64,000 bases of DNA from the NCBI GenBank assembly GCA_043228905.1, contig JBHGNT010000004.1, positions 12,338,001 through 12,402,000 of the forward strand, given 5' to 3'. Below, piece by piece: positions 12,591-64,000 of this stretch. The notes below the pieces were generated by a model, which was not told the DNA's origin, searched no databases, and was given only the letters and a program-made list of their open reading frames with translations. Numbering within the stretch: position 1 is the stretch's first letter; each line of letters starts with the position of its first letter. A program made the position numbers and the translations under genes. This DNA comes from Azolla caroliniana. Lineage: Eukaryota > Plantae > Polypodiophyta.

Positions 12591-12594
12591 ACGA

Positions 12595-16085: not shown

Positions 16086-16228
16086 TGTGGTGAAGTACGA
16101 AAGCTTCACATTAAAAGTCTACAATAAGATAAATACGTAACTAAAATAACATTTGATAATGTTTTATATATAAAGATAATATTAACAACACATATAATAA
16201 TATTATATCTATGTAAAGAAAAAAAATA

Positions 16229-16264
<36 letters not shown>

Positions 16265-37694: not shown

Positions 37695-38040
37695 CTAGGG
37701 TAGTTGACATGCACCTCCTCAAGACCACCACATATCCCTAGAATCGGCCAAGTAATGGCTAATTAAAGAGGAACGTGGCATAGGTAAGTGACATATACCT
37801 CGTCAAGGCCACATCATCCCTTAGAATCGGCCAATTGATGGCTAATTAAAAAGGAAAGTGGCATATGTAAGCTACATATACCTTGTCAAGGCCACAACAT
37901 CCCATAGAATCGGCCAATTGATGGCTTAATAGAGAGTAGAGTGGCATAGGTAGGCAACATACACCTCGTCAAGGCCACATCATCCCTTAGAATCGGCCAA
38001 GTGATGGCTCAATAGAGAGGAAGAGTGGTATACTCAACAT
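37695..38040. repeat. 83-bp tandem repeat, about 4 copies, in the 5' leader of Gypsy C
   Basis: CCTCGTCAAGGCCACATCATCCCTTAGAATCGGCCAA..GATGGCT at ~37714, 37798, 37881 and 37964. Confidence 0.9.
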
Positions 38041-38937
38041 CATATGCAAAACGGCCATGAGATAAGCGTGTGCGATTAGAGGAAACACGCTCGACCCAAT
38101 GCACAAGAATTATTATTATCGTAAGAGTTCAAGAGAGGAGAGAGTGGGATATATATCGCAATATGCAAAAGGCCATGAGTTGAGCGTGTGCGATTAGTGC
38201 AAACACGCTCGGCCCGATGCATAATAATAAGTAAAATCGTAGCGTAGTAGGAGGTAGAAAGAAAGAGAATAAAACGTAATACCAATTTGATTCGACCATA
38301 AAGAACGCATAATAGAAAAAGAGAAGAGATCAAAAAAGAAGAATATCGGGTTTAGAGTGTTGTTTTGATCCTGAGAAGACGAGCCTTGTTAGATCCCCCT
38401 CGCTCACACGCAAAAAACATCAAAACAACAAAAAAATTGTTAGTAAAAGCTCTAATACCACTGTTAAGAGTCTATTACTAATCAATAGACCAAATCAAGT
38501 AAAAAGGAAGAAAATAGATTGGATAGAAGAACCCGTTCCACCCGACCACCCCCGAGCTATGATCTAGACATAGCCAACCTACCACCGACGTCCCATACCG
38601 CCGGATATTAGGATGACTAATACCTTGGAAGAGATAAACACGATCGTCGAGACGAAAGCCTAGCCCGCACCACCGGTGTCTACGACAGCAGCCTTCTGAC
38701 GTGATTCCTATGAGGGTAGCTTAGCCTCATATTTATACCTTTTCCTAGGCCCCTTGAATAGATGTGCCTTTCTAAAAGGCTCTCTATTCATTGGTTGTCT
38801 AAATCATGATAGTGCATGCACATATCATTCATTCTATCCAATCATTAGTCCCCTTTTTAATAATAGTGAACATACCCTTCACTAATGTAAATATTAGTGA
38901 CCTACCCTCACCAACGTTATGTGTACATAACAATAGC

Positions 38938-39917
38938 CAAGTCGTGAAGAGTAAGTCACCATAACTCTCAACACGTGTTCCCTTTAGATTTCCCCAAAAT
39001 TTAGCACATGCATGTGCTTTCTCTTGCGTTTGGATAAATTGTTGAGTAACTTCCCATATTCTTCTCTTTCTTTGAATAATCCTTTTATACTCATGCAAAT
39101 GCTTTTGGTAATTCTCTTTATCCTTAACTACATCCAAAACCATAAGGCACTTTCGAGCTTCACGACATTCTTTATCAAACCATTTTTTCCTAAGTTTCTT
39201 GGTGCATTTCCAAGATGTGCGGTTGGTCGAAAAACATTTGTTTGTATAGGAGATAATGACTTTCTTGAAAGCTTCCCATTTGCATTCTAGTGTGGCACCA
39301 TGTTGTATCTTTGTCATTTGTAACATGTCCTCAACCATCTTGGAATACATGGGTGCTCGCTTAAGGTTCATGCGCAAGTGCGGTTGTTTATTATCTTCAA
39401 TAGCCTTCTCACAATTAAACCTATGCATACATTTGAGATCAATACATAAAGGCCTATGATCGGATTCCCGTGTCCATTCACCAAGTGAGAATTTATGTAT
39501 ACGATCCAAAATACCTTCAGAAAGCAGCACATAGTCAATCACACTATTTCCATTCTGTTTTATACATGTAAAACCATTAGTGTTGGGCCATAAGGAAATA
39601 CCATTTGCAATAAGCGATCCGATACTATTGCACATTTGTAGGAGTAACTTCCCAAATTGGTCTGGATCTTTTTCATCGCTAGAAGAGCGGCTATACATTT
39701 GCATATCCTCTTGCATCCTTGAGATATGTGGCATGAAATATTCTTGTGAATCAAGTTGGAAACTTCTTGTACGAGCATTCCTGTCACCAAAGACAATAAC
39801 TTCCCCTTTGGATTTGAAATAAGCAATATCATCTTCTAGATTGGTAAACGATTGATCTTTATCCAAACAAGCATAAAAGTTAGAATCTTGATGAGGAATG
39901 TAACATCCAACTACAAA
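38938..39917 (-). mobile_element. 5' part of the same LINE (APE endonuclease), separated by Gypsy C
   Basis: CYIPH.DS, GDRNART, NG..FTC..NSVIDY, SDHRP, WFDKEC; colinear with the RT part across the TSD ATAGC. Confidence 0.85.
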
Positions 39918-40234
39918 AGAGAGAGAGAGAGAGAAAAAATGATGATGACAACGATATATTATGTGAAACAATATACAAGGATGGCTAGGAGGCTTATGAG
40001 TGGGGTTTAAGCGATTTGGTTTGAAATAATGCCTTGTGCCTCCTTTTATTGTTTTCTCAGGAGTACTCTTGAACTTTCCAGAATGTTCCAGAGAAATCTG
40101 GAATATACATCAATTTTCTATAGTAAAACTTAAATGAAAATAATATCCTTCTTATTACAATATATAGTGTAATGGTCAAGAGCTTGACCCGTGTAACATA
40201 AGGTAATGGGTTCGAATCTTGCCATATCATGACA
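39918..40234 (-). mobile_element. Partial Tcn1-like LTR
   Basis: Starts TGTCATGAT (minus strand, 40234) like the LTRs at 61391 and ~61954, and carries the same tRNA-like module. Confidence 0.6.
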
Positions 40235-40769
40235 ACAAGTACATTTTCAATGTTCGTTTCGATATGGGAGATGATACATGGGGGGTTATCCAAGGCAGCC
40301 CACCACGTTTTTACCCCAAGCATCATGGAATGTTTTTGTGTCTTCAACTACAGCAGCTGAAGAAGATCTTGACGTACAAAACATTTGCCAAATAGCAATA
40401 CCTAGTGGACATCCAGGTGATGGTGAACAACTTCAGTATATGCGGAACCAAATGCAAACATGGAGTTTTTTGACTACCAGCCAGGGTGATTATGATTACC
40501 ACCAAGATATGTATTCTCTGGGACCGAAGGAATTTGTTTATATGTTGAGTATGGGTTATGTTGGCAAAGGTTGAGACTATTTTCATGGATTATAATTAGC
40601 CTTATCTTGCCAAATGCCATCGTTTATATTTGGTCCTTTTTATTGATAGATACTTGTGGAGTGGAAACTATTATGTACAATTTGTAGATTGCCTTTGGCA
40701 TTGTTAATTTTAATACCAATGGAGCATATTGTTTATGGAAAAAAATAAAATAATGACAACAACTTCTTA

Positions 40770-41613
40770 CACTACAGGTTGCCCTAAGTCATATTTATAT
40801 GTATATGACTTTAAGACTATCTACATATATAGCCATGACAGGCCCTCTAGAAACATATTTACAGATATGTCCCTAGATCCTGGTCACACCGGATTCATCC
40901 TCCGGTTCTCAGATCTCATCCGGAGGGACCGAATTCCCAACACATTCTCCATGAGTGTGTGCATCTCTTCCTCCATGGCTTTCTACCAATTCGGGTCCTA
41001 AGCTGCTTCAACGTAGCTCTCCGACTCATGCATGGTTGCCACCTTTGTCATGTACGCATAATGATGCGCGATATACTCATTGTACCCATACCTCTTCACG
41101 GGGTTCTTCTATTGGGTGGATCGGCGCAATTCTTGATTCACCGATTTCATGACCTTCTTAGCTGACATCGACCTCTTCCTCGGAGGTTCCTTTTCATTCA
41201 AGTTGGAATCGGAGTCGCTTTGATCCGATATAGCTCTGTTGGTGTCATACTCCGACATCTTCTTCTTCCCCTTCTCTTTGCGCATGAACCGTCTGCTCGA
41301 TTCCTTGTGTGGGGAGAGCACGACCGACTCTTCACTACTCACTGGCTCATCATCTTGTTGAGGTAATCAGCGATGTTCACCTCGGTATCGATCTTTCGAA
41401 CATCGAGCTTCTTCTCTATTATGAGCTCCCAGATATGATGAAACCGCACCTCAATGTGTTTCATCTTCACATAATAGACTGGGTTCCGAATGAGGTGTAT
41501 TGCGGTTTGTGAATCGCAATAGATGGTCAGTGTTGGGTGGTCGATTCGACTTCTCGTTGAGAAGTCTTCTGACAATCGATGCAGCCAGATTGCTTCCTTC
41601 GATACCTCTAATG
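40770..41613 (-). mobile_element. Mosaic of Copia fragments (LTR piece to 40941, integrase-RT linker, RNase H) that hosts Copia D
   Basis: GGGACCGAATTCCCAACA LTR end; RKEKGKKKMSEY linker; KEAIWL..YCDSQ.AIHL..KHIEVRFH RNase H, which continues at 47110-47230. Confidence 0.7.
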
Positions 41614-44600
41614 TGTTAGGATTTTCGGTCCCTCCGGATGGGATGTCCCCGGAGATAAATAACGGCAAGCCCGGTTGCGGTTACGGAACCGGATGATGAA
41701 GAGTACCCGGCATGAAGCCGGATGAAGTGTGCCCGGATGCGGATCCGGATGATGAAGAGTACCCGGATACGGATCCGGATGATGAAGACCCCGGTTACGG
41801 AACCGGATGCTGAAGACCCCGACTACGGAGCCGGATGACGAATGTACCCGGAGAGAGATCCGGAACCGGGGACATATTTGTGAATATGTTTGCCAAGGGC
41901 CCTTGAGGCTATATTTGTAAATAGCCCGAAAGTCATATGTGTATAAATATGACTTAGGGCAAACAGTTTTAAGGCTGCTCATTTTTCATGCGAAGTGAGA
42001 GCAGCCGAGAGAGAGAGAGAGAGAGAGAGAGACGAAGAGGTCGTTGCCTCTGTGTATTGCCGCCGCCTGTGGCGAAGACAGTGAGCTCAAGGTTGTTGCC
42101 TTGTAGCTTCACCAGTGTACATCCCTGTTCATAGTGATAGTTGGAGTTTGAGGACTCCCGTGGTTTTTCCCATTTAGGGTTTTCCACGTAAAACATCCAG
42201 TGTACCTTTCTCTCTATTGTTTTTTCGTGCATTGTTGTATTTCCCGTTTTTCTGTGAATCGATCCTGTTCCTCGGTTGTGGCCGAGCACGGAATTTCTAC
42301 AAACTGGTATCAGAGCGACGGTAACACAGAAAATGGAAGGCGGCAGCAGCGGGCAGCCGGGGATGATGGTGCTGAATGCACAGAACTACGCCGACTGGAA
42401 GATAAAGATGGAGGATCTGCTCATTGTTCGGGACCTGTATGAACCGATCGACAGGTCGGAAATACCCAAGGGGGTACTTGAGACGGAGTGGAGGCTTCTG
42501 AACCGGAAAGCCGTTGCAACCATTCGGCAATACGTCGACGTGAGCGTTCTACAACACGTGGCGAACGACACCAACGCATATGAGATGTGGAGGAAGCTGT
42601 CGGGCCTCTACGAGAGGAAGAATGCGTTGAACCGGACCTCCCTGATGAGAAAGATAGTGAACCTCAAGTACCGGGACGGCGAGAGTATGGTGGAACACGT
42701 AAGCACGTTCATGGGATTCGTGAACCAGCTTGCGGCGATCAAGTTCCCGTTGGAGGATGCAATGCAAGCCATCATCCTGATGTGTACATTGCCGGACAGC
42801 TGGGAGAACTTGGTGGTGACTCTCAGCACCTCCTGCACCGAAGATAACTTGTCCCTACAAACGGTAAAGACAAGTATTTTGAACGAAGAAGCGCGTCGGA
42901 GAGATAAAGAACCGGCCTCCGACTCGAAGGCGCTGCTTACCGAATCGGAACGGGGAAGACAATGGAACCGGAGTCCGCAAAGACGGGAGAAGTCGGGGAC
43001 CCGGTCGCAGTCAAGAGGAAGGCCCACATGCTTCCACTGTGGGAAGCCGGGGCACTTCCGGAAGAATTGTCGGCATTACCGAAAGGACAACGGAGCCGAC
43101 GACACCGATTCGAAGAAGTCACCGGAGAGAAACGGTGCATACCGGGGAGCCACGGACCGGAGAGGTCCGGATCGGCGAGGGCAGGACCGGAAAGGAACGA
43201 CGGCACTCGCGGCAAGTGAAGAAGAGATAATGCTCATTACCGAAGAGAGGGAGCTGAACCTTGCCGGTGTAGAGATGACCTGGGTGGTCGATTCCGGAGC
43301 GTCGTTCCACCTGACCCCGGAGAAGAAATACTTCTCATCCTACACAGCCGGTGAGCATGGCTGTGTCCGGATGGGAAATGAAGGCACATGCCGGATTGCC
43401 GGCATAGGAGACGTGTGGCTGATGACATCAACCGGATGCAAGATGCTGCTGAAGGATGTGCGACACGTTCCGGAGGTCCGATTGAACCTGATCTCGGCCG
43501 GGAGGCTAGATGATGAAGGCTACACGGGTAGCATCCGGAACGGTGTCATGAAGTTCAGCAAGGGGAGCCTGATAGTGGCTCGGGCCCGGAAGGTCAACAC
43601 ACTGTACCTGATGAACTCCCGGCTATGTCCGGAAGAGCTGAATGTGGCAGCTGACACTGCCGGTGAGCTGTGGCACAAAAGACTGTGCCACATGAGTGAG
43701 AAGGGGATGAAGAGGCTTGCAGAAGACAACCTTATCCCAGTGAAGCATGTGCACCTGGAAAAGTGCACCGATTGCCTGGCCGGTAAGCAGAACCGAACCT
43801 CCTTCCACTCAAGGCCACCGACGAGACGTAGCGCACCATTGGAGTTGGTGCACACCGATGTGTGTCAGGTAGAAACGAAGTCACATGGCGGAGCCCAGTA
43901 CTTCGTAACATTCATAGATGATCATAGCCGAAGACTGTGGACGGCACCGATGAAGACAAAGGACCAAGTGTTGTCCGTCTTCAAAGAACTCCACGCGAGA
44001 GTGGAAAGAGAATCCGGCAAGAAGCTGAAAGCGATACGAGCGGATAACGGAGGGGAATACCGGGGGCAGTTCCAGGAGTACTGTCGCTCGAAGGGGATCC
44101 GGCTCGAGTTTACTGTGCCGAAGACGCCGGAACTGAACGGGCTGGCCGAGAGGATGAACCGGACCATAATGGAGAGGGTCCGGAGTATGCTGGCGCATGC
44201 GAAATTACCCAAGGGGTTTTGGGCTGAGGCAATGTCGACGGCGACGTATGTGATAAATAGATCACCCTCAGTACCTTTGGACGGAGACACGCCGCAGAAA
44301 GTGTGGACCGGTAAGGAAGTGTCCTACCGGCATCTGAAGGTGTTCGGGTGTCTCGCATACGTGCATGTGGCAAAGGACCGGAGAGGAAAGCTAGATCCAA
44401 AGACCCGGCCATGCATATTCCTCGGTTACGGCGACGACGAGTTCGGCTACCGAGTATGGGACCCGGTCGACAAGAAGATATTCAGGAGTCGAGATATCAT
44501 CTTCATGGAGAACAAGACACTCGCCGACTGGGAGTCGGAGAAGAAGATGAAGAGCTCCAAGTCGACCGGTGAGGATCAACTCTACGAGGAGCAGTCCCGA

Positions 44601-47104: not shown

Positions 47105-47234
47105 TAATGCTGCTATATACTCGGCCTCTATGGTTGATAGGGTCGTGCACTCTTACAACTTCAACCTCCATCATATCGTGCCACTACCATAGATGAAGAT
47201 ATAGCCTCATATTGACTTCCGATTGTCCGAATTT

Positions 47235-50200
47235 GTTATCCCTTAGGCTGGACAAACCCTAACACAGGGTGTCCCTGTGGAACACTTCACCAAAGGGTGG
47301 CACGGGGAGATATTGATAGACTGTAGTATCGAAGGGGTCTTAACCGGTTACTAATCGACACTGTTAATTATCATAACACATGCCTAAGATTAATTATATT
47401 AAGCATAGGATGGTAACCAGATAGACACTAAACATACGTAAACAGCAACACTTCGATTAATTATCCGTTGTTGATTACATTCTTGCCGGGTCCTTTTATA
47501 GGTCTCCGACTGAGTTACAAACCGGTGCCAACCGGCAACCGGCAACGATCTGATCCAGATCCGAATCGGCATACCGATTCTGGGTCCGTCATTCCGCATC
47601 TCAAAATAACATAATACTTATTAATTTCAAAATAACATAGTACTTATTAATTTCAATTCCCTTTTCCTAATTAAATACCCCTTTTACATTCTGGACTCTA
47701 ACCGGCCCTTTGGCCTTGCAGGGCAACACATGGCACGCTTATGGGACAATACATTGTACGTCGAACCCACGGTTAGCCCTTTATCACTCGTTTGTCAAAA
47801 TGTCCAGAATGCTTTGGTCCAAGGGTTCTAGATGTTCTTCGGGTAGTTGCTCCAGTTGTTGTTGTGGCTAATGTTGTTGTTGCTCTTCGGCCTACTCCTC
47901 CTCTCCGGTTTTTATCCCTTCAGGCTCCAGTCCCTTCCGGACTTCCGTCTCTATCTCATCTGTTCTGGGCTCCTCCTGCTCCTGATGTCCAGTTTGCAAT
48001 GGCTCTTTCAGGTCGGCTACCTTCGGCTACTCCTCTTGAGCTACTTTTGTTTGGCTTTCTTTGGTTTTGGCAGCATTCGACGTCAGCTCCAGAGATTTCT
48101 CTTTCTCACTAATGTTAATTGTCGCCGTTCTTCTAGGCTCCATTTGCTGTCTCCGTTCCTGTTCGTAATGCTCGAACTAGAGTAGGGTATCTAGCTGGTC
48201 GTCACCTAACTGTTCCACCAACTAGCCCACCGCCACCAGTTGCTCTCCGGCCAAGGACAAGAAGTCATCGGGTAACTCTTCCCGTATGGTCACAATGCTT
48301 TCCGCGTCAAGTATGTAGAAGTTATCGCCGTCCTTTTGCCGCTGCCGTCCTGTGGACTTCATCCTGGAGTTCCCGCATCTTTTCTTGCTGCCGGTCACCA
48401 TATGCCATCAATTTGTTGTGTTTCGCCTCTAGGTGCTTGTGATCCCGGTGCGACCTGTCAAAATCCTTTGTTTTCTATTTCAGCCTCTGATTGATTTGGC
48501 ATTGGGCCCGGTCCTCACAATCCTTCTATTGCTAGAGTTCTTCTTGGAGCCGCTCGATCTCGACTTTCGCCGATCGTTAGGGTTTGTCCCTTTCTTGCAT
48601 ATGCTTGATGACCTTTCTGTAGATTGTCCTCGGCTTTCCGGAGGTTCTCTGCCATTTTCCATTGCTCTTCCTCCACCGCCTTCTTCAGGTCTCGTTCTCT
48701 AGCCCTTAAGGCATCTTGGGCTACCAATTCCTCTCCGATAGTGGTGAGTTCTTGTTCTTGTGCCTTATTTGCATCCGGTGCTATTTCAGTTACCCGCATC
48801 TTATTAGTCTGTTCATTCACTAGAGCCATTAATTCTGGTAGTCTTAGTCTTGGACACCTCTGCTTTAGCGTGCGCAATTTCTTCGTCCATGCTCTGGACC
48901 ATCGACCAGGCCTTCTCAACTTCTTCGGTTGTGGCAAACAACCGGTTCCCCTGTGCTCTCTCCTCCATTTCAATTTGGCACACAACTCCAGCCACCTACT
49001 CGCCGATCCACCGTAGCCATTGACTGCCAGTGCCTTTTTGTCTTGCTAGTTCTGGTTGTGGCATGGCCTCTGTTCGCGCCGAAAGCCCTTTTTGGATTGT
49101 TGACTGCAACGACAACTCCTGCTCTTGTTGGGCCTGCTGCCCCAGTGAGGTAGGCAATTCAATTACCGGTTCTTGGACCACCGGCACTGCTGCTTCTTGC
49201 CGCATAGTTAACTCTTTCATCGGTTCTGGTTGAACCGGTTCTGCTTCCTTCCTTGGGTCCGGTCCCTCGGAGTAGGGTGTCCATGCGTTGTCCTTCACCG
49301 AACCCGATTCGTCCCCCTTCTGCTCCGCATTGCTATGCTTCTAGCTGTTAGGATTTTGGTCCCTCCGGATGGGATATGAGTACCCGGCAATGGAAGACCC
49401 GGTCAAAACCGGATGACGCAGGGCCGGTGAGAACCTCTCACCGGATGAAGGGACATATATGTAAATATGTTTCTGTTAGCCCATTGTCGCTATATTTGTA
49501 AATAGCCCGAAAGTCATATTAGTATAAATATGACTTAGGGCAAACAGGTTTAGTGTGGGTCATTCTTTGTTGTCATTTTGGTGTAACTGCTATACAGATC
49601 ATAACAGAGAGAGAGAGACACACACACACAAAGTGATTCTCTGTTGTAACCGCCACCAAGCGAAGAGAGTGAGCACGAGGTCGTTGCCTCTATGCCCCCC
49701 TTGTTGTATTCTTTTGACATAATGATAGTTTGGAGTTTGTGGGCTCTCGTGGTTTTTCCCTCTCAGGGTTTTCCACGTTAACATACTGTGTACCCATTTT
49801 CATATTGTGTGTGTGTACGTGTATTCACTTCCATTCCCAATTTCGGTGTTCGATTCTAAAAGACACGATTTGAGACTCGGTTGTGGGCGAGTAATATTCC
49901 TCATATTTCGCGTCACTAGCAACGTAGGAGGTTATCGGCTGGGTCTTCCTCCGCCTCCTCCTCTTGGGTTCTGATATTGATCTTCGTTGCCAAGGGGTCC
50001 GGCTCTTGTTCCTGTCGGCACAACTTGATTTTCAAAGGCCTTATTGGTGGTTCCATCGGTGTCTTTGTCTCTGCTTGCCTCTTCCGGCTAGGCGGTTCTT
50101 TCCCTTGCTGCAAGGTACTGCCCTCTTTCCATCCAGGCATGTGCTTGGCCAGGAGTTGTTGCCGTTTTGAAGGTTTGTTAGGCGTGGTCTCCATTACTCA

Positions 50201-52830
50201 AACCCGCTTCTTAGTCCTTACCGGCTCCACTGGTGGCACCAAAAGAGTTAGCCATTGAGCCATGGCTGTCCATAATTTATTACCGTTCTGCACTGATGCT
50301 ATCGTTGTCCGCAAGAAATCGGCGATAATTATTGACCAATCCACTTGCACCCCTGTGTACGTAGCAATGATGAAACCGGATTTGTCCTTTGGCATTGTTG
50401 GGGGTTGGGGGTACACAAACCCATACTCGTGGAGGACACGAGCCACTTCTCTGAACAGGGGGTCCTCGCCGCCCTGTGTCTGGTGAGCCTTACTAGCGAG
50501 GGAATATTCGCCAAAAAACTTGGTGAGAATTTCAGGAGAAGGGTTCTCGATGGCTTCCTCTGTTATGACTTCCGTGTCGATTTTCTGCACGACTTCTTCT
50601 ATTTCGTCGTGCGACGGTGTCTCTGCTATCCTCAAGAAGCCTCCCAACCCATGTTGGTTTAACCACTTTTTGGCTATTTCGAAAATTGCCATCGGTTCCA
50701 TCTCATCATCTGGTTCTATGGGGTTGGGTAGGGACGATATGCTTGTATGTGCTTCTTGTGTCCGTCTGCTCACTTGGATTGTCCTTTGTGTGCTCAGTGC
50801 TCTGTGTTCGCGAAATGAAAGGGACTCTGCGAGGCGGAGGTTTTCTATTCCCATGCTTGGTGCCTTTCTCGATTCTCGCGCATGCACATCGTGTACTATA
50901 ATAGCAACTGTGTGACACGTGGTGTGCTTTAACTAGGCTTTAAATAGCCACTACACACCTTTCCGAGGTGTCCGTTCGTTCCTCGCCTTTGCATGATGAT
51001 CTTTTTTTTTTTTACCCGGTAACCCTGGGTCCCTTGTCTTCATGGTTGCCGACCAACTGTTTGCCGCTACCTATTTCCGCATTGTTCTCCAATTGATGAA
51101 ATGGGTTCTATGGCATGGGTCCATAATATGGTTTAAGTCGGAACCCATTTACCCACTTGTCCAACACCTTGCCGGCTAGCGTTCCCAACGGATATGAGCT
51201 GTTGAACTCTCGCGTTATCCAATATGGTCCGGTCCACTGGAACTGTAGCTTCCCTGGTATCTTGCCCATCCGGGTTTGGAACACTAGTACCAGCTTGATG
51301 ATTTCAAACATCTTCTCGTTACCCATTCGGTGGTGGTCGACGAATGCTTTCCTTCGTCGTTGCTCGAGTTCCATCTACATTAGGCTCGCTATTCGGTGCT
51401 CCTCCAACTCGCATAGTGCTGTTAATAGGATTTTTTCCGACTCCTTCTCGCTCAACCGCTCCGGGAACTATATCCGTAAGCTTAGAATCTGGAATTCAAT
51501 TGGCATCACAGCTTCGAGACCAAATGCTACCCGGAATGGTGTTGTCCGGATACTTGTTTTGTATGTCGTTTGGTACACCCATAACGCGCTATGCAGCTTT
51601 GTATCCCAATCAGTTTGGTTCTCATTGAGAATCTTCCGGAGAATGTTTTGCAGAGTTTTATTGGTGGATTCAGCCAATCCATTGGCCTGGGGGTAATAAG
51701 GGGTGCTTCGCTTGTGTACAACCACATGAAATGTTGTTAGGCTTTCCACCACGTGGTCGAGGAAGTGTCGACCTTGGTCACTGATTAATTCGATTGGAAA
51801 TCCATACCGGCACCAGATGTACTCGTACAGGAACTTTGTCATTGACGCCGCGGTATTGTCACGTAGTGCCTTGGCTTCCACCCATTTTGTACAGTAATCT
51901 GTGGCAACAATTATGTACCTGTTGCTGGTGCGCATTGTTGGCTGGTGCGGCATGCGCGCTTGTTCCGTTGGCCGGCCCATTCTTTGACACAAATCACATT
52001 CCTTCGTATATCGGAAGGAGTCCTTTAGTGTCATTGGCCACCATAAGCCGCTGCGCCATATTTTCCTTGCCGTAGCTTCACCGGCATAATGTCCTCCGGC
52101 GACCCCACAATGCAATTCCCGTAAAATGGTGTCTTTTTCATTACTCCTGACCGCTCGTTGCCATATGTCGTCCGCTCCTTTATGATACAGTGTATCCTGC
52201 ACTAGACAAAAGTGTCGGCTTTGCACCGCCAACCGTTTATGTTCATCCCGGTTCATTTCCTCTGGGGTAGTCTGGTGCTTAAGAACTGGTGCATATTCGT
52301 TAGCCTTTTGTCCTCGTCCGCAACCGTCCCATCTACCGTGGTTTCCGTTGTAATTTTAAACAATATGGCATCCGGAAATTCATCTTGAACACCATCACTG
52401 GCCTCTCCAGATTCTAACCGGCTCAAGTAATCGGCAACCGCATGTTGTATACTTGACGGGTGATAGATCTCAAATTCAAATTCTTGTAATAATAATGTCC
52501 ACCGGACCAACTTGCTGTTGAGTGATGCCTTCGAGACCAAGTATAAAAGTGTTGAATGGTCTACATGGAATGAAAACTTGCGACCCAACAAATAATGTCG
52601 GGATTTGGTGACATTGTATATCATTCCTAGGGTTTCTCTTTCCATAGTGGAATAATTCTGCTTCGCCTTTGACAGCTTCCGGCTAGCGTAGTACACCGGA
52701 CGGTACCACTTCGGTTCGGTAAGTTGCATGAGTACACTGCTGATTGCGATATCTGACGCGTCCACAAAGACATGGAACTCTTTTGACCAGTCAGAGGGTT
52801 GTACCACTAGTGCTTGTGACAACATTACCT
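47235..52830 (-). mobile_element. Gypsy E (Athila/Tat-like) 3' part: RNase H, integrase, large extra ORF, putative LTR ~47235-47753
   Basis: FHVFVDASD, VADYLSR, GGHY..CDLCQ, SDQG, QANGLAE, WTGPY; extra coding region ~50887 down to ~47900. The LTR limits are uncertain and no clear PPT was seen. Confidence 0.75.
49346..49915 (+). mobile_element. Solo LTR, Copia D-related, 570 bp
   Basis: TG...CA termini, TSD CTAGC on both sides, shares its 5' end and TATA region with the Copia D LTR. Confidence 0.93.
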
Positions 52831-55185
52831 TGAGTGCGCGGCAAGCAGAGTTCTCTACTACTTTGCATCGTGTGTGAGTGATCAAGTCTTGAGCTATATT
52901 CGAGATGCCAGGACGCCGAAGGATGCTTGGGGAAATCTGAAGAAGCGTTTCGCTGCGACTACCAAAGCCAAAAAGCTTCAACTCAAACAGGACCTGAGCA
53001 ACATGCGACAAAGAGACATTTCGGTGGCTGACTACACCTCCAAGTTCAAGGTGATTTGGGACTCTCTCGCCTTTGTCAACGTGAACTTCGATGAGGATGA
53101 AATGGTGTAGGTTTTCCTCAGAGGGTTGACGTCGAAATTCGGAGCATTCCGAATGCTGATCTACATGAGGAAGAATACGCCTTCGTTCTTCTAGCTACAA
53201 TCAATGTTGCTCGTAGAAGAAAACCACTCGGGTGCATTGACAAGTACACACACTAGCATCAAGATGTTATATACGGAGGCAGATCGGGCACGTGGTCGTG
53301 GTGGTTGAGGTGGGTCGGTACGTAAGGGAAGCGGACGACAAGAACAAAACTTGAGGTATAATCGAAATGCCGACAACAGTTTCAGACCACCCCTAACGGG
53401 TAGGGGGAGTCAAGGCGGCGCCGGAGGTCGGCAACGAAAGGTCGAGATAGACTGTTGGTATTGTGGCTAGAAGGGTCAGAAAGAGATCGAGTGCTGGAAA
53501 AAGCGAGCTGATTCGAAGAAGGCCGGATCGAGCGGAGGAGACGCAAATAGGCGTTAGAGATCACACTACGTTGAAAGCTCAAGGCGAGCCGAAATGGGCC
53601 CGGCCTTCATGATGAGACACAAAGCCAACTCAATGGTGGTGAACACCTCAAGGTCGAACGAGTTGTGGTATGTGCATTAGGGTGCGTCGAACCACATGAC
53701 GATGGAGAGCGCCCATGAGCGATGGTCTAGCCTTCTTCTTCAATGACTCTCGAGATGCTTCATTGAAGAAGAAGGCTAGACCATCGCGCATGGGCGTCGA
53801 GAAGGGAGGATGTTCATCCTCGAAACGAATGACATACGCACCGCTATGTTCACAAAGGGGCAAAAAGTCGAATTGGACTTGGACTTGTGGCACAAGCAGT
53901 TCGGTCACGTCAACTTCCCGCGGCTTTGAGAGATACAGACGAAAAACAAATCATTTTCGGCTTGTCGAAATTCGGTAGCCGAAATAGCCATGTCTGCAAA
54001 GCTTGGCAGTTAGGGAAGAATCACCGACTTCCATTCCCAAATGAAAGAAATCGGAGCCGAAACAAGCTCGATGTGATCCATTCGGATGTAAGGGGACAAA
54101 TGTAGAATGTGAGTATAGGTGGAAGTCATTAGTTTTTAATCTTCATCGATGATTACACTCAACACACTTGTGTGTGCTTGATTGAGAAGAAAAGCAAAGT
54201 CTTCTCCTGCTTCATAAAGGTGAAGAGCCTTGCTGAATGAGAGACAGGCTGAAAAATTAAGTGCCTAAGGTCCGATGGTGGGAAAGAGTACTACTCTGAC
54301 TAGTTCTCTAACTATCTACAAAAGGAAGGAATTTAACGTGAATTCTCCTGCAGATATACGCCTCACCAAAACGTTGTGGCAATGATGAAGAATTGGACGA
54401 TTGAAGAAGCGACCAAGGCGATGCTTGAGGAGAAGCATATGCCCAAATTAAACTAGGCCGAAACCGTCAGAACAACGGTATACCTGCAGAATCCGACTTC
54501 TGCGAATGGAGGAGTGTCGTCACACAAGCTGTACTTCAGGAAGAAGCCAAATTTGGCACACTTGCGGGTTTTCGGTAGCATTACGTATATGCATGTGCCG
54601 GAGGAAAAGCGGAGGAACCTAGATGCGAAGGCCGAAAAATGCATTCTCGCCGGGTACTTGGATGAGCAAAAGAGCTATAAGTGTTATAACCCTTGATCGA
54701 GAGCGGTCCGAGTAGGCCAAGATGTCATTTTCGATGAGTCGTCTTCGTGCTACCTGCCTTTACCTCCAACTCCCATCCACTCCATTCTGAACTCTGAGGA
54801 CGAGGTCAGTGAGGCAGAGATTTCCCCTGATGAAGATAAAATTGGAACTCTAGAAGAAATTTGATCTCATTTCAGCTAAGTGGGCCAAATGAGCATTGTG
54901 TTGAACAAACTAGTAAGATGAAGAGCCGGTGAGTAGTTGAGACTCGGCCGTGTAGTCCTCGTGCCAGAAACCGAGGAGATGATATACACCCAAGGAGAAA
55001 GGAAAGAGAAAGATGCTGGAATATGGCACTGAGGCCGAAATGTTGGATCGAAGTGAATCTGACACGGCTAGAAGCAAGGAGGGACCTCCGAAAACGAGGT
55101 CGAGGTCAACCGAGAGGGCTACGAAATCGGCGAACCAGAAGTTGCACCGATCCACCCACCAAAGGAGTCTTGTAATTCGGTATGG
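52831..55185 (+). mobile_element. Copia F (A-family) decayed gag, protease and integrase
   Basis: LSYIRDARTPKDAWGNLKK gag paralogous to 15515; HSDV, SDGGKEY, AHLRVFGS; interrupted by the Gypsy G LTR. Confidence 0.85.
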
Positions 55186-57222
55186 TGTCGTGGTGTACTT
55201 TGTACACTACGTAAAATATGTGTGGAGTATCTGATTGACTAAGTATGAAGAAATAGGAGAAATACTACAATAATTATGCTACATGCATAGGGCAGGATTT
55301 GAACCCTGTACCTCCATGTTAACAATTTTAGCCTTACCATTGTACTAACATATTATGAGTTTTAAAGTTATACTAAACTTTATCCCATGTAAATATTCTA
55401 GGTAAGCATGATAGAAAAAGTTATTCATGCATACACACTCATGTTAAAAGAAAAGATGTGATAAGCTAATCATGCACATGTAGTGTGCATGAAAACTAAA
55501 GTTAGAAAAAACATGATGTTTGCGTGTGATAAACTTAAACTCTTCCATCACTATATAAGAAAGAGAGAAAGATGTATAAGGGTTGTTGATTTTTTATAAG
55601 GGTTGATTAATATAAAATATTCGTGGGATTCACGATTTTGCCATCTATTTCTCTCTTACAATCTAAGTATCAATTAATACACTATACTCGTGGGATTCAC
55701 AAGTTTCATATCTTCATCTTGCAATCTATTCATAACTAACCTTATGTCATATTCTTCTTTCTCCTAGTCCAAAACCTGAGTGATTCCCACCCAAACTCAC
55801 GGAAGCGATCTGGAGCGAAAGGCCCGACACAGTGGTGATATATTTCTAAAAACACCAATTAATAAATTATATTCGTGGGATTCACGAAATAACTATACTC
55901 GTGGGATTCCCGAGGTTTCTATATCTCTCTTTCAATCCAAATTCATATTCTTATCTAGATATTGATTAATAAAATACATTATACTTGTGGGATTCAGAAG
56001 TTTCAATCTCTCTTTCTTATAATCTACTCATAACTAGATTAGCCTCAAATTCTTCCTCCTCCTAGTCCAAAACCCCGGCGGTTCCTACCCAACTCACGCA
56101 ACGATCCGGCGCCGAAAGGCACGACACAGTTGGTGAACCCGACGTGAAAACGGGTGGCAAGGAGATAGAAAATCAACAAGAGGCTAACAACATGATGGCG
56201 ATGTTCGAGCGGATGCTACAAGAACAACGCGCGATGTTGGAGATTGCGGTGGCAATAGAGCGGCTCGTGCAACGTAATGGGCAATTCAATGGGAAGGATG
56301 TGTCGCGATATTTGCGGAATTACAAGGTGGAAATGCTACAATGCGGAATATCGGAAGGATTGCATGTGACATCCTTCAATCGAGTGGCTACGGACTGGCT
56401 TAAAGGGAGTATCCACGGGATATGACAACAAAATCTGACATGGGAAGCATTTGAAGAAGCGTTAAAGACCCCGTTGACCATCAAGGACTTCTCTAAGGCA
56501 ACGCGGAGGGGATTCGAAGATTGGGTGGAAACGCCAGACAAGGGGCTGAAGGTCCTCGATGTGTTTTCAACATTCGAAAGTCAGTTCGGGAGGTTGTCTG
56601 CGAGAGATCAAGTTATCCTCGCACCGGACAAAGTGATCATGTTCTTACGAGCCGTCGATGTCTGGGATTGGAAAGATCTTGGAATGCTTGTGGAGGACAC
56701 CACTACTGAGAGTGGCCTCACCAATACATGGGAAAACGTGTGGGACATCGTCGCACAATACACAAAGAGGGGGCAATGGCTTGGTAGTGAAGAAAAGAGG
56801 GTTTCGGAACCAATTCCGAAACCAAGATCCGGATTAGAAGACCATCAACCGTGGGCTCGGGAGACTATGACCGAGAAGGGAATCGATGCAACCACGGTGG
56901 AGCAATTGCTGAAGGAGATGGAGAATCTAAAAATCGTGATCGTCCCACAAGTTCCAAGTATATGGACCGTTGATGCATATGGTGTGATAGCACCGAACAT
57001 GATCGGAGGGATTGCGATGCGCACAAGGAGGTGCTACGATGGGATCTTATCTACTATAAGAGAAATCAGATTCATTCGATGGACTCTCGGAAGCCACTCC
57101 GACCGAACTTCTGAAAAGGCGGCATGAAGAAGGTCGTAGAAGAGGAAATAACGGCAAAAAGGAATTATACGACAACCGCGGGGATACGTGTAGGTGAGTC
57201 CTCTGGAGCAAAGACGTCTTTT
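55186..57222 (+). mobile_element. Gypsy G (B-like): 5' LTR with duplicated 3' part, Trp PBS and decayed gag
   Basis: LTR TGTCGTG...CACGACA 55186-56126, PBS 56131-56148, gag FNGKDVSRYL homologous to Gypsy B gag. Confidence 0.85.
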
Positions 57223-60200
57223 TGGCCGCCTCTTGACTAGTAATCGACTTTGTACGTGCCATGAAATTGCCAGTTTGGTAAATCGATCAACCATTGTGAG
57301 AATTGCATCAAAACCTTTTGAAACTGGGAGATCAGTAATGAAGTCCTAGGATATAGACTTCCAAGGAGTTTCCGGAATGGGAAGTGATTGTAGTAAGCCA
57401 TAGGATCGGTGATGAGGACTCTTTGATTGACAACATATATCACAGCTCCGAACATACTCCTCAACAAAATGACAAAGGCGAGGCCACCAATAGCGTTCAG
57501 AAATTAATTCTAGAGTCTTGTGAACTCCAAAATGACCAGCCATTGGTGAGTCATGGCAATCTTGTAAAACTTGTAGTCGTGGGGGACCATCAAGAACATA
57601 CAATAGATTTTGTCGAAACAAAAAACCACCATGCCAATAGAACTGACGATAGTCATTACGAGGATTTTTCGAGCAAGAAGCACAATCCGGGACGATATGA
57701 TCCAAAACATCCTTGACGAAATCATCAATGGCCATATGATCTCGAATGGAATCAAGAAGAGTGGAATTTTCAAGAGTTGTTATGGCGTTAACTACCATTA
57801 ATCGTAATCGATTAGGACCCAAAAGGATTTATTTTTGATGCTCAAATGCAAGTTCCCCTGGACGAAGTTCCATATAAGAGTGTCGAGAAAGAGCATCTGC
57901 TTTGCCTTACTGCATCCCAGGGCGATATATGATGATAAAGTCGAAGTGAGTCAAAAATTGCGCCCACCGGGCTTGTCACTGACTCAAGACTCGAGCATTT
58001 TGGAAATAAGTCAGGTTCTTATGATCATTGTAGACAGTGATCTGCTGAGAAGAACCTTCTAGAAAATGTCACCATTGTTGAAATGAATCCACAATTGCAA
58101 GAAGGTCTTTGTCATGGATCTCATAGTCGATCTCTACAGCTTCAAACTTTCGTGAATGAAAGGCGACAGGGTGTAGTTTTCCATCATCTCCAGTCTACGA
58201 GTGGACACTCCCAAGTGCAAAATCGGATGCATCGGCTTCGAGGATGAAGCATTTTGTTGGGTCGACATATGCTAAGATAGGTGCCATTGTAAATGCTCGT
58301 TTTAAGCTTCCGAATGCCTCGGCTGCATCTGAACTCCATATAAATGGCTGATCTTTATATGTGAGTTGAGTAAGCGGAAGCACAACCTTGGAATAATCTT
58401 TAATAAATTTTCGATAAAAATTTGCAAACCCGAGAAAACATTGCACATCACGCACTAAAAGGGGCGTTTGCCACTCTAAAATGGCTTGTACCTTCATGGG
58501 GTCCATAGCAATACCATCTAATGATACAACATACCACAAAAATTCCACTTGATTCTAGCCGAAACTACACTTTTCTAATTTTGCGTAGAGACCATATTCT
58601 CAGAGTCAACATAGTACCTGACGAACATGTTCATCATGCTCCTCTTGGGTCTTTGAGTACATTAAAATATGATCTAGGTAAACTATAGTGAAGATATCAC
58701 GAAAATATCGAAAAATATAGTTCGCCATATGTTGGAAAATAGCAGATGCATTCGTGAGACTGAATGGCATCACAGTATACTCAAAATGTCCATAGCGAGT
58801 GCGAAAAGTTGTCTTCCATTCATCCCTTGCGCAAATCCGAACTAGATTATATGCTCCGTGAAGGTCCAATTTTGTGAAATATTTTGCACCACTGAGACGT
58901 TCGAAAAGATTCAGGATTAATGGTAGAGCATATCTATTCCGAATAGTCACTTTTTTTAGCCCTCAATAATCCACGACCAATCGAAGAGTCTCATTCTTCT
59001 TCTTAATGAAGAAGATAGGTGCACCAGCAGGGGATCTAGAATGCCGAATGAATTCGTTTGCCAGATTCTCGTCAATATATTCCCGCGAAGTCTCTAGCTC
59101 TACAGGGGAGGGATTAGAAATTGGGCCCCATGGAGGTTCTTTCCCTGGTTGTAAGTCAATAGGGCAGTTGTATGGCCGATGCTCCGGCAATGTATTCGCC
59201 TTCAACTTATCCAAGACATCTGAAAACTCCTTGTATTTCTCTGGTAGTTTAATTTCTGCTTCACGTTGTCGTAGTGTATTCCACACACTGCGTGAAAACC
59301 ATAAAATAATATATCCGATTTTAGATACATATAAATAAATAAATAATATATCAAAATATTTCTCACGTGCATAAGGCAAGATTCAAACCCTATACCTCCA
59401 CGTAGCCAAACCTCAACTTTACCATTATGCTACCTTATCTTTAGTGTTCTACAAATAGATTTAATAACTATAAGTGCTTTATTTGCGCCTACCTTTATTA
59501 AAAGGTAAATCATGCATTTTTAGAGTGCGTGAATATTTTATAGAAAAACGCAAGCAACTAAAAAGTGACTCATGCACATCTAGCGTGCATGAGCACTATA
59601 TTTAGCAAATAAAAGCAAGGATTAGAAAAGCATCACATGCACATTTAGTGTGCATGAACATATTAGAAAAAAGCATGTAGCTATGCTTAGTCTTTCCCAT
59701 CACTATATAAGGATGGGGAGCACATTGTAGTTTTTGTTGATTTTTTTTCTATAATGATCAATCAATCTAAAATATTCGTGGGATTCACGAATTTGCTAAA
59801 ATAATTCTCTCTTACTACCTAAATATTGACTAAATATACTAAACTCGTGGGGTTCACAAGATTCTTATGTTATAACTCTTTATACCTATTCTTTACTAGC
59901 CTTATTTGTATTTTTCTTCCTCCTAGTCCAAAACCTCGGCGGTTCCCACTCGATTCACGCAACAATCCGGAGCCGAAAGGCACGACAACATGAAGTGGAT
60001 GATGGAATTGCTACTATTGTGAAGACGAACATGGCCTCATTCCCCCTTTCCTGCCGCAACTATCGTAAAGAGTGGTCGATAACTCCAGGGATTTATTATC
60101 ACATGTAGGAGAGAGGGATGTGGGGTTTGTGCTTTTCTCCCAGGTCTCCTCAATTGTTCTTTTCATGCAATCAATCTTTGGGTTCCCGGGGAGACCTAGA

Positions 60201-61391
60201 ACTATTGGGTGTTCCGGACTACGAATAATGTTGAAAGAGATTATGCTTGCCAAATCGCCAAGGACTATCCTAATTGGCCCGGACTCCTCGACTATATCTC
60301 CTGATGCTATGGGACGTCCATCAATGACTCCTATGGCTACTGGGCTAGGAAGCTTATTCATGAGGATGTTTTGTGACAAGGCAAATTCACGATCCATGAA
60401 ACAAGAGTTGGCTCCAGAATCTAGGAGGCCAAAGGCTAGGACTTGATGACATGTAGATGTGGTAAGCTCGACTTGTGCTGAAAAAGCTCTACTCACTTGA
60501 TTTGATGAAATGGAACCATGACTAGGAACTAACTCTACATAGCTAGGATGGTCCAGCCAAATGACTCCTATTTTGGCCGGACTTACTCGTTTAACACATA
60601 CTCTAATTGACTCAAGACATCAAATCTATTCTCCTGGCATGGACTATGAGGCTTACTTATCTTATTGGAAGTAACAATAGAACTCGATGTAGGGTTTTCA
60701 TGGCCACTTACTTGGTATACTTGACGCCTAGGTTTATGTGGACAATTTACAACTATATGTCCTGAACCGCCACAATATAGGCAGAGGCGATGCGCTCGAC
60801 GTCGATGCATCTTAGCATCTGATAACGGCCGACGACGTTGTGTTGACTCTATTTCCATCGGAGTTGGGCCATCCCTTCTTATGGGTCTAGAAACGTGTGG
60901 AGGCGTTGCGACTACGGAAGTGTAAGTTTGCTTAGGTTGGCGGCGTAACATTTGTTTGGCGCTTAGAGCGTCGCTCAAATAGACGATTATCACATCGCAC
61001 GACTTGACTAATGGCTTCTGTAAGCGACTTCAGAGCTTCAGGGAAAGTAAGAAGAAGATCTTGGACATCATTTCGCAAACCTTGACGGAATTGGTCCATT
61101 AAGGCTGCCTCATCCCAAGGGATATCACATGCCAAGAGATGGAGATCGGCTGCGTAAACTGACGCGAGATTGAGAACACTCTAGAATGTTCTAGGTTATC
61201 CTAGAATGCAGAGTAATCTAGAAGATTCCAATGATATTAGATTTCATATTCTAAAAACTATACATATAAGAATATTAATACAATGGTTAAGGATTTGACA
61301 TATGTACAACAAGGTCGTGGGTTTAAATCTTTTTGAGTCATAATGTGAGTGTCATGATCCTTTCGATGCATGATGTGAGTGTTATCATGAC
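57222..61391 (-). mobile_element. Gypsy H (Tcn1-like), decayed: partial 5' LTR, gag, protease, RT, RNase H, partial integrase
   Basis: LTR start TGTCATGA at 61391; [54 protein letters not shown]. Confidence 0.88.
59267..59987 (+). mobile_element. Solo LTR of the Gypsy G family, 721 bp, inserted in H
   Basis: TGTCGTAG...CACGACA termini, homologous to 55186-56126, 4-bp TSD ACGT/ACAT. Confidence 0.88.
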
Positions 61392-61953
61392 AGACATTGG
61401 CCGAACACCTTCAGTGCGTGCAAATGATATTGTGATATATCAACGACACTAAGGATAGGGCGTTGTTGTATCAGGCAGGAGTAGCTGATGAGTTAGTTGG
61501 CTACACGACTGCCGATTGGGCCGGAAATGGCAGCGATCCCAGGTCAACGTTTGGATTCCTGTTTTCACTAGGAAGCCTCGTGATCACCTGGAGCAGTAAA
61601 AAGCAGCCGATAGTGGCACTGTCAAGCACCGACGCCAAGTATCGAGGGGCGGCTGTCACTACATGCGAAGCCATTTGGCTCAAACGGTTGTTGAAGGATT
61701 TGCATGTAGAGGTGTCAGAGCCGATGGTAATATACTATGACAACCTCAACAACATCCAACTCGCGAAGAACCCTATCTTCCACACCTGTACAAAGCACAT
61801 CGAAGTGCACTCTCATTTTGACCACGATCAAGTCCTCTCTAGAGAAGTCGAACTGGTGTATGTTCTAATTGATCGGCAGGCTGCCGATATCTTCACCAAA
61901 CCTCTTGGCCTAGACAAGTTACACGAATTCTTGGGCATGCTTGGCATACAACA
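61392..61953 (+). pseudogene. Copia A-family end of RT and RNase H, probably the continuation of Copia F
   Basis: ADWAG..RST.G, WSSKKQ.VALSS, KHIEVH, ADIFTKPL. Confidence 0.8.
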
Positions 61954-64000
61954 TCTCATAGACATGATGGAATGTAGGGGGTTAAACCCATGATATCCTA
62001 GTCATATTGGGGAACCTTGCCAATTGAACTACTTCCATCTATGCATTATTGTATTGTATAAGTTTCAATTTATTACATTCTATGTTAATCACTAGAACTT
62101 TCAAGAAACTTCAGTAGAATGCATCTTCAGGCCCTCTCTAGAAGTTTCCATGCACTCTCTAAATGTTTCCTAGCTTGTATGCATACCACCACATTCTTGT
62201 ATAAATACTTCGGTGCACCTTGATTACAATCAAGGTGAACAACACCAAATACGGAAGCATAATTTAGTTCTTGCTCTTTTGTCTACCTTCTCTCTCTCTT
62301 GTTCTCTTGTCAATGCTCTCTCTCTCTATCTATATATCTATCTTTCGCTCTCTCTTAATATTTAGCTCGCCTACTTATCCCTGTCCTGGTCTACCCATCC
62401 ATGACAATTTGTTCACCTTCCCTTTTTGTTACCATGTCCGACTCGGCCTTAAGCCAAGTAATGGCACCCTTCACCCGTTGAGCCTCACCTTCCGTTAGCA
62501 CCTAACCCAAACCCTTCCTCTTCCAATTCATATGTCCTCGAACCTAACGTCAGCCTATCTAACAAAATTCAAGGGCTCGAGGGCGCATCTTCGTGGCTTC
62601 ATCAATCAAAATCGGCTTATCATCCGCTTACAACCCCAACGTTATGCTAGTGATTTCTCTCGGGTCGGCCTCGTTGGCACCCTTCTCTCAATGCCGGCAC
62701 AGGTGTGGTTTGCACCATTGATCGAGACCTCATCCCCACTCTTTGACAACTTTCCTACCTTCCTTGCGGATTTTGAAGCCACATTCAGAGAGACAAATCG
62801 ACGACAAACGACACTCATGAAACTCTATTCCTTACACCAAGGCTCTCGTCCAGCTTCCGTCTATGCTTCAGAGTTTCATCAGATTGCATGCGATGTCAAC
62901 TGGGATGACCAAGCTTTATGCGACTAGTTTCGTTGAGGCCTCAGAAATGATGTCAAGACTCTTCTCTTAAACTTTCCGGAGCCCACATCATTGTTCCAGG
63001 TAATCTCCCAAGTCATTCAATGTGATAATCGTCTTTTCGAGCTTTGACAAGAGGAATGGGGGACTCGAGGCTTTCCGTCTTCCTCCTGCAATGCTCCACT
63101 CACAAGGCCATATATATAAGTTTTGCCAAGCATGCCACGGTTGCCATCTTCCAATGATACTCATACCCCGAGGGAGGTCGACCCCTGTACCCCAATGGAG
63201 ATCGACCATGCTCGGTTCCAACCATTAACCGATGTCCAACGGCAACATCGATTTGACAATGGCCTCTGCCTCTATTGTGGTACCCCCGGCCATGTCATCC
63301 GCCACTGCTTGATGCGTGGCCCTCGTTATGAATCCCACCGTGCACGTCTTGCAGAGGTTTCTCGACAACAAGAAAATGATCGTGCACGTCTTGTAGAGGT
63401 TTTTGAACAACATGAAATCAAGCAAGTCCAGCTACAGTAGGAGCCATGCCATTGGACACTTCCCGTCCATACTTCTCTATGCTCCTACAATTCAGTCACG
63501 CCAGCAGGGTTCTCTCTTCGGGGGCGGTTACTGAAGCCACTGTCCCGTTGGTACCTCAAGTCGGGTTCCACCATGAGGTATTAACATTCTATCTCATTGC
63601 AACCTCTCAACATCCGATTGTTTTAGGGGTCTCCTAGTTGGAAACACACAATCCGATGGTGGATTGGTGTAGCCACTCCATCACCTTTCCACAAACACCA
63701 GTGCGGGTCTCTTCCACAAACATCGTTACTTCTGTGGAGGCTGCTTTCAGTTTGGCTGCACATTCTTCTTATTTCAACTCAATATCCGACATTGCCGATT
63801 CCGTTGTGGTCGATTCTAGCATGGTCGCTTCCGTGCCCGTTGTGTCATAGGACATCTTGGTTCCTGTCACCAATTTGTCTGCAAGATATAGCGATTTTTT
63901 GGTCGTGTTCGAAAAGTGAAATGTTGACCGGTTACCGGCACATCACCCCTATGATTGCCCAATCGAACTCCAAGATGGCGCACATCCACCATTTGGGCTC
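61954..64000 (+). mobile_element. Gypsy I (Tcn1-like): 5' LTR ~61954-62406, decayed gag and start of pol
   Basis: LTR ends CCATGACA at 62406, TATAAATA at 62200. Gag paralogous to H (PMEID, CLYCG..GH..C), followed by HPIVLG and LP.HHPYDCPIEL. Confidence 0.85.

Follow-up and report, generated by a model that had tools for sequence, protein, structure and literature searches.

What maintains a tRNA-type promoter, mostly facing backwards, inside the long terminal repeats (LTRs) of coding Gypsy retrotransposons? The question is raised by a 64-kb stretch of Azolla caroliniana DNA (contig JBHGNT010000004.1, positions 12,338,001 to 12,402,000; hereafter the window), a stack of nested plant LTR retrotransposons without a tRNA gene, whose reverse transcriptase (RT) relatives with a named source are one fern and liverworts (Adiantum, Riccia, Calypogeia). 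A preliminary description had noted antisense pairs of tRNA-like A and B boxes near the 5' end of five LTRs, attributed them to unrelated families and read them as a shared or convergent architecture. The box pair, here termed the module, is real but patchy across LTRs, and the independent lineages that carry it are two, not five families: one Phygy-like, with a primer site in elements C and G presumed to be that of tRNA-Trp, and one Tcn1-like.

The window was scanned with box consensus sequences (A box, TRGYNNARTGG or TRGYNNARYNGG; B box, GGTTCRANYCY) at a spacing of 41–46 nt, which is the distance from T8 to G52 in an intron-less tRNA. Two pairs match without mismatch, seven with at most one and eleven with at most two, against means of 0, 0.025 and 0.295 in 200 block-wise dinucleotide shuffles (maximum 2). 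Off-spacing controls at up to two mismatches give 2 pairs at 35–40 nt, 3 at 47–52 nt and 0 at 53–58 nt. Ten of the eleven pairs, or their three-mismatch twin at 23749, are LTR modules, and the eleventh, at 27404 inside Copia internal DNA, is probably a chance match. Nine of the 11 modules in the window lie antisense to their elements. The five pairs originally reported lie at their given positions with spacings of 42, 43, 44, 44 and 43 nt and 0–2 mismatches to the consensus, and all five are antisense, the strand being set by gag or pol in G, H and I, by homology in the solo LTR and by LTR anatomy only in the lone LTR at 39899–40234. Beyond these five the antisense rule fails, with sense copies at 16830 and 23749. 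Similarly, the families are not unrelated, as the G and solo LTRs share 72.7% identity over 396 nt, with 73% across the module. The AGGT variable-loop motif persists in four of the five modules but is missing from I, and the supposed position upstream of the TATA box is not checkable in H, where the LTR is cut and joined to mid-gag. Absence of the module from Copia LTRs is upheld, nine LTR pieces reaching at most 8.9 on the box matrix versus 31–44 for the carriers, which form its training set. Its claimed absence from Gypsy C is not, if C denotes the Trp-primed Gypsy at 16086–24155, as it does here (the original lettering is not recoverable), for that element has three modules per LTR. The Met-primed chromovirus at 31832–38932 and the Gypsy LTR at 47240–47753 do lack a module. 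A very degenerate candidate listed in Table 1 scores at most 4.1, which is background given that Copia LTRs reach 8.9 on the same matrix, and it was not counted.

Recurrence was assessed in an independent set of LTRs chosen by primer site alone, comprising 122 metagenome loci of an estimated ~240, with long flanks for 80 and nearly all from one assembly series. The sample consists of the 56 loci with at least 600 nt upstream; L084 and the second LTR of L083 duplicated other entries, L068 did not resemble an LTR, and all three were set aside. Its 53,590 nt contain 13 strict pairs, 10 antisense and 3 sense, compared with a shuffle mean of 0.3 (maximum 2 in 200 shuffles). The off-spacing control gives 4 pairs at 35–40 nt, of which 3 belong to loci that also carry the module, and none at 47–58 nt; 90,520 nt of downstream DNA give 2 pairs, both inside 3' LTRs. 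By a matrix trained on the window modules alone, 10 of the 56 loci are carriers: L053, L057 and L082 of the C group, L017 of the G group, L064, L009, L070, L083 and L086, and L037 with a sense copy only. Both L053 and L057 have two antisense copies, and L057 and L082 have one sense copy each. Sense copies stand after the TATA box in C, L057, L082 and L037, with a degenerate one in L064; the sense pair of L086 (spacing 46) is weak, and an additional module lies in the 3' LTR of L061. The antisense pair of L038 is a real tRNA-Arg gene outside the LTR, and that locus is not a carrier; L025 was not counted either, its upstream copies presumably being initiator-tRNA-like. Ten of 56 is a lower bound, as some negatives have truncated LTRs, although several complete families are clearly module-less. 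Enrichment over shuffled sequence thus holds for the window and for primer-site-selected LTRs, yet it is patchy, and the notion of a shared or convergent architecture is strengthened by the recurrence but narrowed by the presence of only two independent lineages and of many LTRs without a module.

The features of the module that persist are those of its boxes. Eight window and 15 metagenome modules were compared, which are not independent of one another and were chosen by their boxes. Five of the eight invariant box positions, T8, G53, T55, A58 and C61, are kept in all 23 modules, T54 in 21, A14 in 20 and C56 in 19, giving a retention of 83–100% alongside stems that are near random. Stem pairing averages 11.5 of 21 pairs per module versus 9.9 in a null with fixed boxes; the acceptor, D, anticodon and T stems hold 74, 51, 65 and 74 pairs against nulls of 63.7, 36.1, 58.6 and 68.3 (p = 0.055, 0.0006, 0.10 and 0.10). 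This pairing is a trace of tRNA ancestry and not a tRNA. ARAGORN calls no tRNA in the window, nor among the 23 modules at default settings or at 90% score, Rfam has no tRNA match in the window, and a 3' CCA is found in 0 of 23 modules. A functional tRNA gene was rejected for want of a cloverleaf call and an Rfam match and at 11.5 of 21 pairs, in agreement with the earlier view that tRNA function is not what is selected; the boxes have survived longer than the fold. In two of four groups conservation is highest in the B box (0.91 and 0.87, versus 0.70 and 0.74 for the spacer). At positions 56–57, 16 modules have CA, which keeps the consensus without a CpG, 3 have CG, 2 TG and 2 TA. The C LTR is highly repetitive in DNA runs under four organism labels, with C56 of module 1 at 37, 32, 81 and 87% of depth; as C56 is both present and absent at depth, intact and broken versions have both multiplied. 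Across the whole LTR the RY/TATA block stands above the modules in depth, and the rise in depth at the module may come from an edge effect.

The distribution of carriers does not follow a single line of descent. In a quick tree of 25 gag N-termini, in which two long branches meet and from which L009, L083 and L086 were left out for lack of a gag match, the five carriers need four changes and are not clustered (136 of 500 shuffles are as low); carriers as one gag clade are rejected (p-AU 8.7e-49). C and L064 have a U3 block in common (69% over 215 nt) though their gags are distant, and the L064 LTR start matches the module-less L019, L052 and L079, so that U3 blocks appear to move between families. 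Spacer similarity within groups mostly reaches z values of 3–6, G and the L064 group reach up to 3.8, which is weak, and spacer homology between the two lineages is not demonstrable (z ≤2.8). Groups differ in the triplet that occupies the anticodon position (TGG; CTA or CCT; TTA or GTT; TGT; CTC), and by triplet the isotypes are presumably Pro, Asn, Arg, Thr and Glu. Because these loops differ, the module probably originated by capture of tRNA genes or of heads of short interspersed elements (SINEs) more than once, and its spread within the Phygy-like lineage would have followed from U3 exchange. Tandem duplication of the module is seen in C, L053 and L057. A SINE2 insertion was considered and rejected, since in two LTRs 15–18 nt separate the module from the LTR end and the 64 kb contain no copy outside LTRs.

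Within the Phygy-like lineage, C, G and the solo LTR have like ends (TGTCGTG...CACGACA). C is 8,070 nt long and encodes gag, RT, RNase H and integrase. Two antisense modules precede the TATA box in the C LTR and one sense module follows it. Between the end of the B box and the LTR 5' end lie ~110 nt in G and in the solo LTR, and ~210 and ~370 nt in C. Blocks of CATGCA, presumably of RY type, lie at 16603–16700, 55426–55490 and 59511–59660 and also in L053, L057, L064 and L082; between module and TATA box they average 4.8 in carriers versus 0.7, and four module-less loci also have 4–6. The target sites of C and the solo LTR are 4-bp NCGN with one CpG decay, and the scanned open reading frames (ORFs) of these carriers contain no chromodomain. 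A 4-bp NCGN target-site preference and non-chromovirus status are given for the Phygy clade (PMC6317226). On these two features C, G and the solo LTR are classed as Phygy-like.

In the Tcn1-like carriers 15, 18 and 61 nt separate the end of the B box from the 5' end of the LTR. Element I has a Tf1/Sushi-type gag and an 11-nt self-priming site at 62408 that pairs with 62232. Element H runs down to ~57270 in the order gag-protease-RT-RNase H-integrase and has the same gag and protease motifs as I, its primer region being lost; placement of H and of the lone LTR, called the 40-kb LTR in Table 1, rests on protein motifs or LTR ends only. No target-site duplication (TSD) was found for that lone LTR when one was looked for. 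Perfect heat-shock-element arrays (GAAnnTTCnnGAA) occur at 40071–40088 and 62095–62112 between module and TATA box, these two LTRs holding 4 of the 5 matches in the window, where 0.99 are expected. A chromodomain with an aromatic cage and self-priming characterise the Tcn1 clade (PMC6317226), and the chromodomain of a related 12.6-kb element has named relatives from fish and fungi. Finding both element types in one window would suggest a non-seed, moss-like host (PMC6317226). Among the fetched metagenome loci, no homologues of four Tcn1-type LTRs were found beyond short motifs. Protein-based scans of viral contigs gave no relatives, and the primer-site pattern gave 8 matches, none with LTR context. 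A pattern of module plus LTR end detected six loci in prokaryote genomes, titled as bacteria.

With a confidence slightly below even, the captured tRNA promoter is read here as an outward-facing TFIIIC/TFIIIB site that would shield the element's own RNA polymerase II (Pol II) promoter. The reversed A/B-box unit stands between the outer end of the LTR and the enhancer/TATA block of the element, where it is predicted to dock TFIIIC and TFIIIB. The docked factors would form a portable barrier of the tRNA-gene type, through which the Pol II promoter could stay open in nested, methylated transposon DNA. The antisense orientation would place TFIIIB on the enhancer side and direct any RNA polymerase III (Pol III) away from the Pol II promoter. 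In the C group outward-pointing module pairs bracket the TATA box, the sense module past it completing the bracket. Selection would then act on the boxes as DNA. Yeast and human tRNA genes and extra TFIIIC (ETC) sites are established TFIIIC-dependent barriers to heterochromatin, with the B box as the high-affinity site (PMC12409998). The retained A box argues for a full TFIIIC-TFIIIB assembly in the module and not for a B-box-only site. The broader proposition, that coding LTR retrotransposons of early land plants repeatedly captured tRNA promoters and pointed them outward on the sides of their Pol II promoter as a self-carried TFIIIC/TFIIIB insulator against silencing, is tentative and considered rather unlikely.

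Several observations weigh against a shielding function. Selection of the modules by their boxes inflates box conservation; the A box of the L064 group is less conserved than the spacer (0.69 versus 0.74), and B box and spacer of the G group are about equal (0.64 and 0.63). The excess of CA at positions 56–57 is weak evidence because many real tRNAs natively have A57. C56 is lost in three of the five originally reported copies and in module 1 of both C LTRs, and ~63% of depth lacks it in the best DNA run (X1). The full 5/5 anticodon stem kept by L053 and L057 hints at RNA-level constraint or recent capture. The module is missing from 46 of the 56 Trp-primed loci in the sample and, within the window, from every Copia LTR and from two further Gypsy LTRs, and is therefore dispensable. 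TFIIIC tolerates 32–93 bp between the boxes (PMC12409998), and it requires neither the fixed 42–45-nt spacing nor the kept AGGT. TFIIIC barrier activity in plants was not found in the accessible parts of the literature consulted.

The same boxes could instead serve as an active antisense Pol III promoter, from which a short RNA leaving the 5' LTR, or running toward the integrase end from the 3' LTR, would regulate the element. Both boxes and the tRNA spacing are retained, which is more than a B box; the AT-rich upstream DNA suits plant Pol III (PMC13578239), and Cassandra is a Pol III-transcribed precedent (PMC10886601). Nevertheless, a T4 run occurs within ~29 nt after the B box in only 8 of 23 modules, and as Tcn1-like LTRs end 15–18 nt past the box, a transcript of the 5' LTR would enter random flanking DNA, so that such promoter activity is considered unlikely. 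A role in the genomic RNA, where U3 would anneal primer tRNA or tRNA fragments and thereby aid strand transfer or soak up silencing fragments, requires exactly the antisense orientation observed and could draw on D and T loops, which are common to all tRNAs. Ty3 has a two-part primer site, which is in keeping with such annealing. The U3-R region of HIV-1 is reported to provide a further precedent (cited in PMC6468702). In contrast, the match of positions 62–73 to the primer tRNA is only 3.6 of 12 versus 2.9 when shuffled (p = 0.009 with non-independent rows; ~30% identity), in a comparison limited to the 3' 17 nt of the primer tRNA as read from the window's own primer site. With element I self-primed, sense copies in existence and CCA absent throughout, this role is improbable. 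The module might also be a landing pad drawing in other retrotransposons that target Pol III start sites, as known for Ty3-type targeting (PMC5911963). However, by self-BLAST and sequence inspection 0 of 7 carrier LTR copies of the window have another element inserted immediately upstream of an A box, and such insertions would be a by-product that gives no reason for keeping the boxes, which makes a landing pad very improbable.

A further explanation dispenses with function: the modules would be relics, left by the capture of tRNA genes or SINE heads and under little or no selection, that hitchhike on successful U3 blocks, with orientation and position an accident of capture. The patchy occurrence, the U3 block common to C and L064 despite distant gags, the broken boxes of many copies and the ascertainment of modules by their boxes all accord with it. 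Relics are, on the other hand, difficult to reconcile with near-random stems beside box invariants so largely kept, with the tandem duplications, and with the same layout in two distant lineages without demonstrable spacer homology; neither a SINE body or tail nor a free-standing copy of the module is found in the 64-kb window. Neutral persistence is thus held to be quite unlikely.

The closest known system is Helenus/TRIMp3, a non-coding miniature retrotransposon with terminal repeats (a TRIM) of 311–1263 bp in which the tRNA part lies in sense and is taken to drive the genomic RNA (Kojima 2024, PMC10886601). As in Helenus, the LTR here includes a tRNA-like sequence that retains boxes A and B but is mostly non-functional in isotype and structure, and the plant case, Helenus-1_SMo of Selaginella, also keeps AGGT. 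In contrast, the carriers of the window include 8-kb gag-pol elements with a TATA box (G, H and I have gag or gag-pol), and their modules are mainly antisense, precede the TATA box and number up to three per LTR. L061, L083 and L086 are shorter, with ~2.2–2.4 kb between their LTRs, yet still above TRIM size (~1.3 kb). To judge from these features the module resembles a TRIMp3 capture in its working without belonging to Helenus, because size and orientation differ and only the presence of the boxes in the LTR agrees. Autonomous elements are expected to use Pol II, and 'not a few LTRs' in Repbase resemble tRNA, of which only TRIMs were pursued (PMC10886601). The Cassandra and Ajax TRIMs likewise captured a Pol III promoter into the LTR and differ in that it is a 5S-derived type 1 promoter, in sense, in non-coding elements (PMC10886601). 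The module also resembles tRNA-gene (tDNA) barriers and ETC sites, B-box-dependent TFIIIC sites proposed to stop heterochromatin and insulate promoters (PMC12409998), and the module's B box is of their consensus type (C56 in 19 of 23; G53, T55, A58 and C61 in 23 of 23). Those sites are fixed host loci known from chromatin immunoprecipitation and genetics, with the B box only in ETC (PMC12409998), whereas the module is mobile, has two boxes and is known from sequence alone. The tRNA-Lys3-like sequence in HIV-1 U3-R is similarly a tRNA-gene-like U3 sequence complementary to a tRNA in the genomic RNA, but it mirrors the primer tRNA, while the module does not mirror the Trp primer and is also found in a self-primed element (HIV-1 case as cited in PMC6468702). 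For the Phygy and Tcn1 clades, the carrier lineages, no tRNA-like LTR module is described in the accessible part of PMC6317226, and 'tRNA' has 0 occurrences in the main text of the Physcomitrium transposable-element paper (PMC7466625). The literature searched contains no description of coding plant Gypsy elements whose LTRs have antisense tRNA boxes, and notes in Repbase could hold one.

Table 1 Features of the module-carrying elements in the window (positions in the 64-kb stretch; C56 refers to the tRNA position in the B box).
Feature	Positions	Strand	Remarks
Degenerate candidate of the preliminary description	12905–12960	+	5' end of Tcn1-like 3' LTR 12571–12973, minus strand; background score
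C 5' LTR, Phygy-like	16086–17236	+	Element 16086–24155; LTR pair 97.9% identical; TSD GTGG/GCGG
C LTR antisense module 2	16294–16347	-	Perfect B box; twin 23206–23259
C LTR antisense module 1	16459–16512	-	Pro-TGG-like loop; C56 lost in both LTRs; twin 23371–23424
C LTR sense module	16830–16883	+	~125 nt downstream of TATA; twin 23749–23802
C 3' LTR	23018–24155	+	Three modules as in 5' LTR
Lone LTR ('40-kb LTR')	39899–40234	-	TGTCATGA start; inside endonuclease remnant of a long interspersed nuclear element (LINE); lineage inferred from end sequence
40-kb LTR antisense module	40165–40219	+	Both boxes perfect, spacing 44; LTR 5' end 15 nt past the B box
G 5' LTR, Phygy-like	55186–55829	+	TGTCGTG start, RY repeats, TATA ~55551; then partial second LTR to 56126
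G LTR antisense module	55295–55347	-	Both boxes perfect, spacing 42; GTT a possible reading of the anticodon-position loop
G primer-binding site	56131–56147	+	gag next; same motif at 17242 in C
Solo LTR, G group	59267–59987	+	Inserted in H; 4-bp TSD ACGT/ACAT (NCGN type)
Solo LTR antisense module	59379–59432	-	Spacing 43; C56 lost
H LTR 5' fragment	61180–61393	-	Cut after ~215 nt, directly joined to mid-gag of Tf1/Sushi-type element
H LTR antisense module	61276–61330	+	Spacing 44; C56 lost
I 5' LTR	61960–62406	+	Heat-shock-element array 62095–62112; TATA ~62200; gag next
I LTR antisense module	61978–62031	-	Spacing 43; C56 lost; LTR 5' end 18 nt past the B box

Some further features accompany these elements. 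Between 55186 and 56147, element G consists of a full LTR, a partial diverged second LTR and then the primer site. H has a similar but looser heat-shock-like repeat near 61180–61230, and a 560-nt Copia RNase H fragment (61393–61960) lies between the two head-to-head Tcn1-like elements. In the Gypsy at ~47240–52800 a T-loop-like stretch, GTGGGTTCGAC, is located at 47754–47780 (minus strand) just before the 3' LTR, with no clean polypurine tract. A near-perfect 90-nt hairpin at 53708–53798 in a Copia remnant matches Rfam MIR949 at 43.7 bits, under the 100-bit cut-off. Among the metagenome loci, L009 and L086 share an open frame of 429 residues downstream of the primer site, at 80% identity and without a gag-profile match, and the 3' LTR of L086 lies ~2.2 kb past the primer site. 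An 8–10-bp inverted repeat around the B box of L064, L070, L009 and L086 forms an extended T-arm-like hairpin, in which L070 and L009 differ, by eye, by one two-sided change.

LTR-borne boxes would confound tRNA and Pol III annotation in genomes of this kind. If neutral, the modules would still represent a recurrent capture pattern, and the Helenus concept would come to cover coding elements. Should TFIIIC bind these boxes, the elements would carry their own chromatin barrier, a cis-acting resistance to silencing undescribed for plant retrotransposons in the literature searched. Thousands of mobile TFIIIC sites would then be scattered through the host genome, and because one and the same genome harbours both intact-box and broken-box copies, these would offer a natural high-copy test of whether tDNA-type insulators work in plants.

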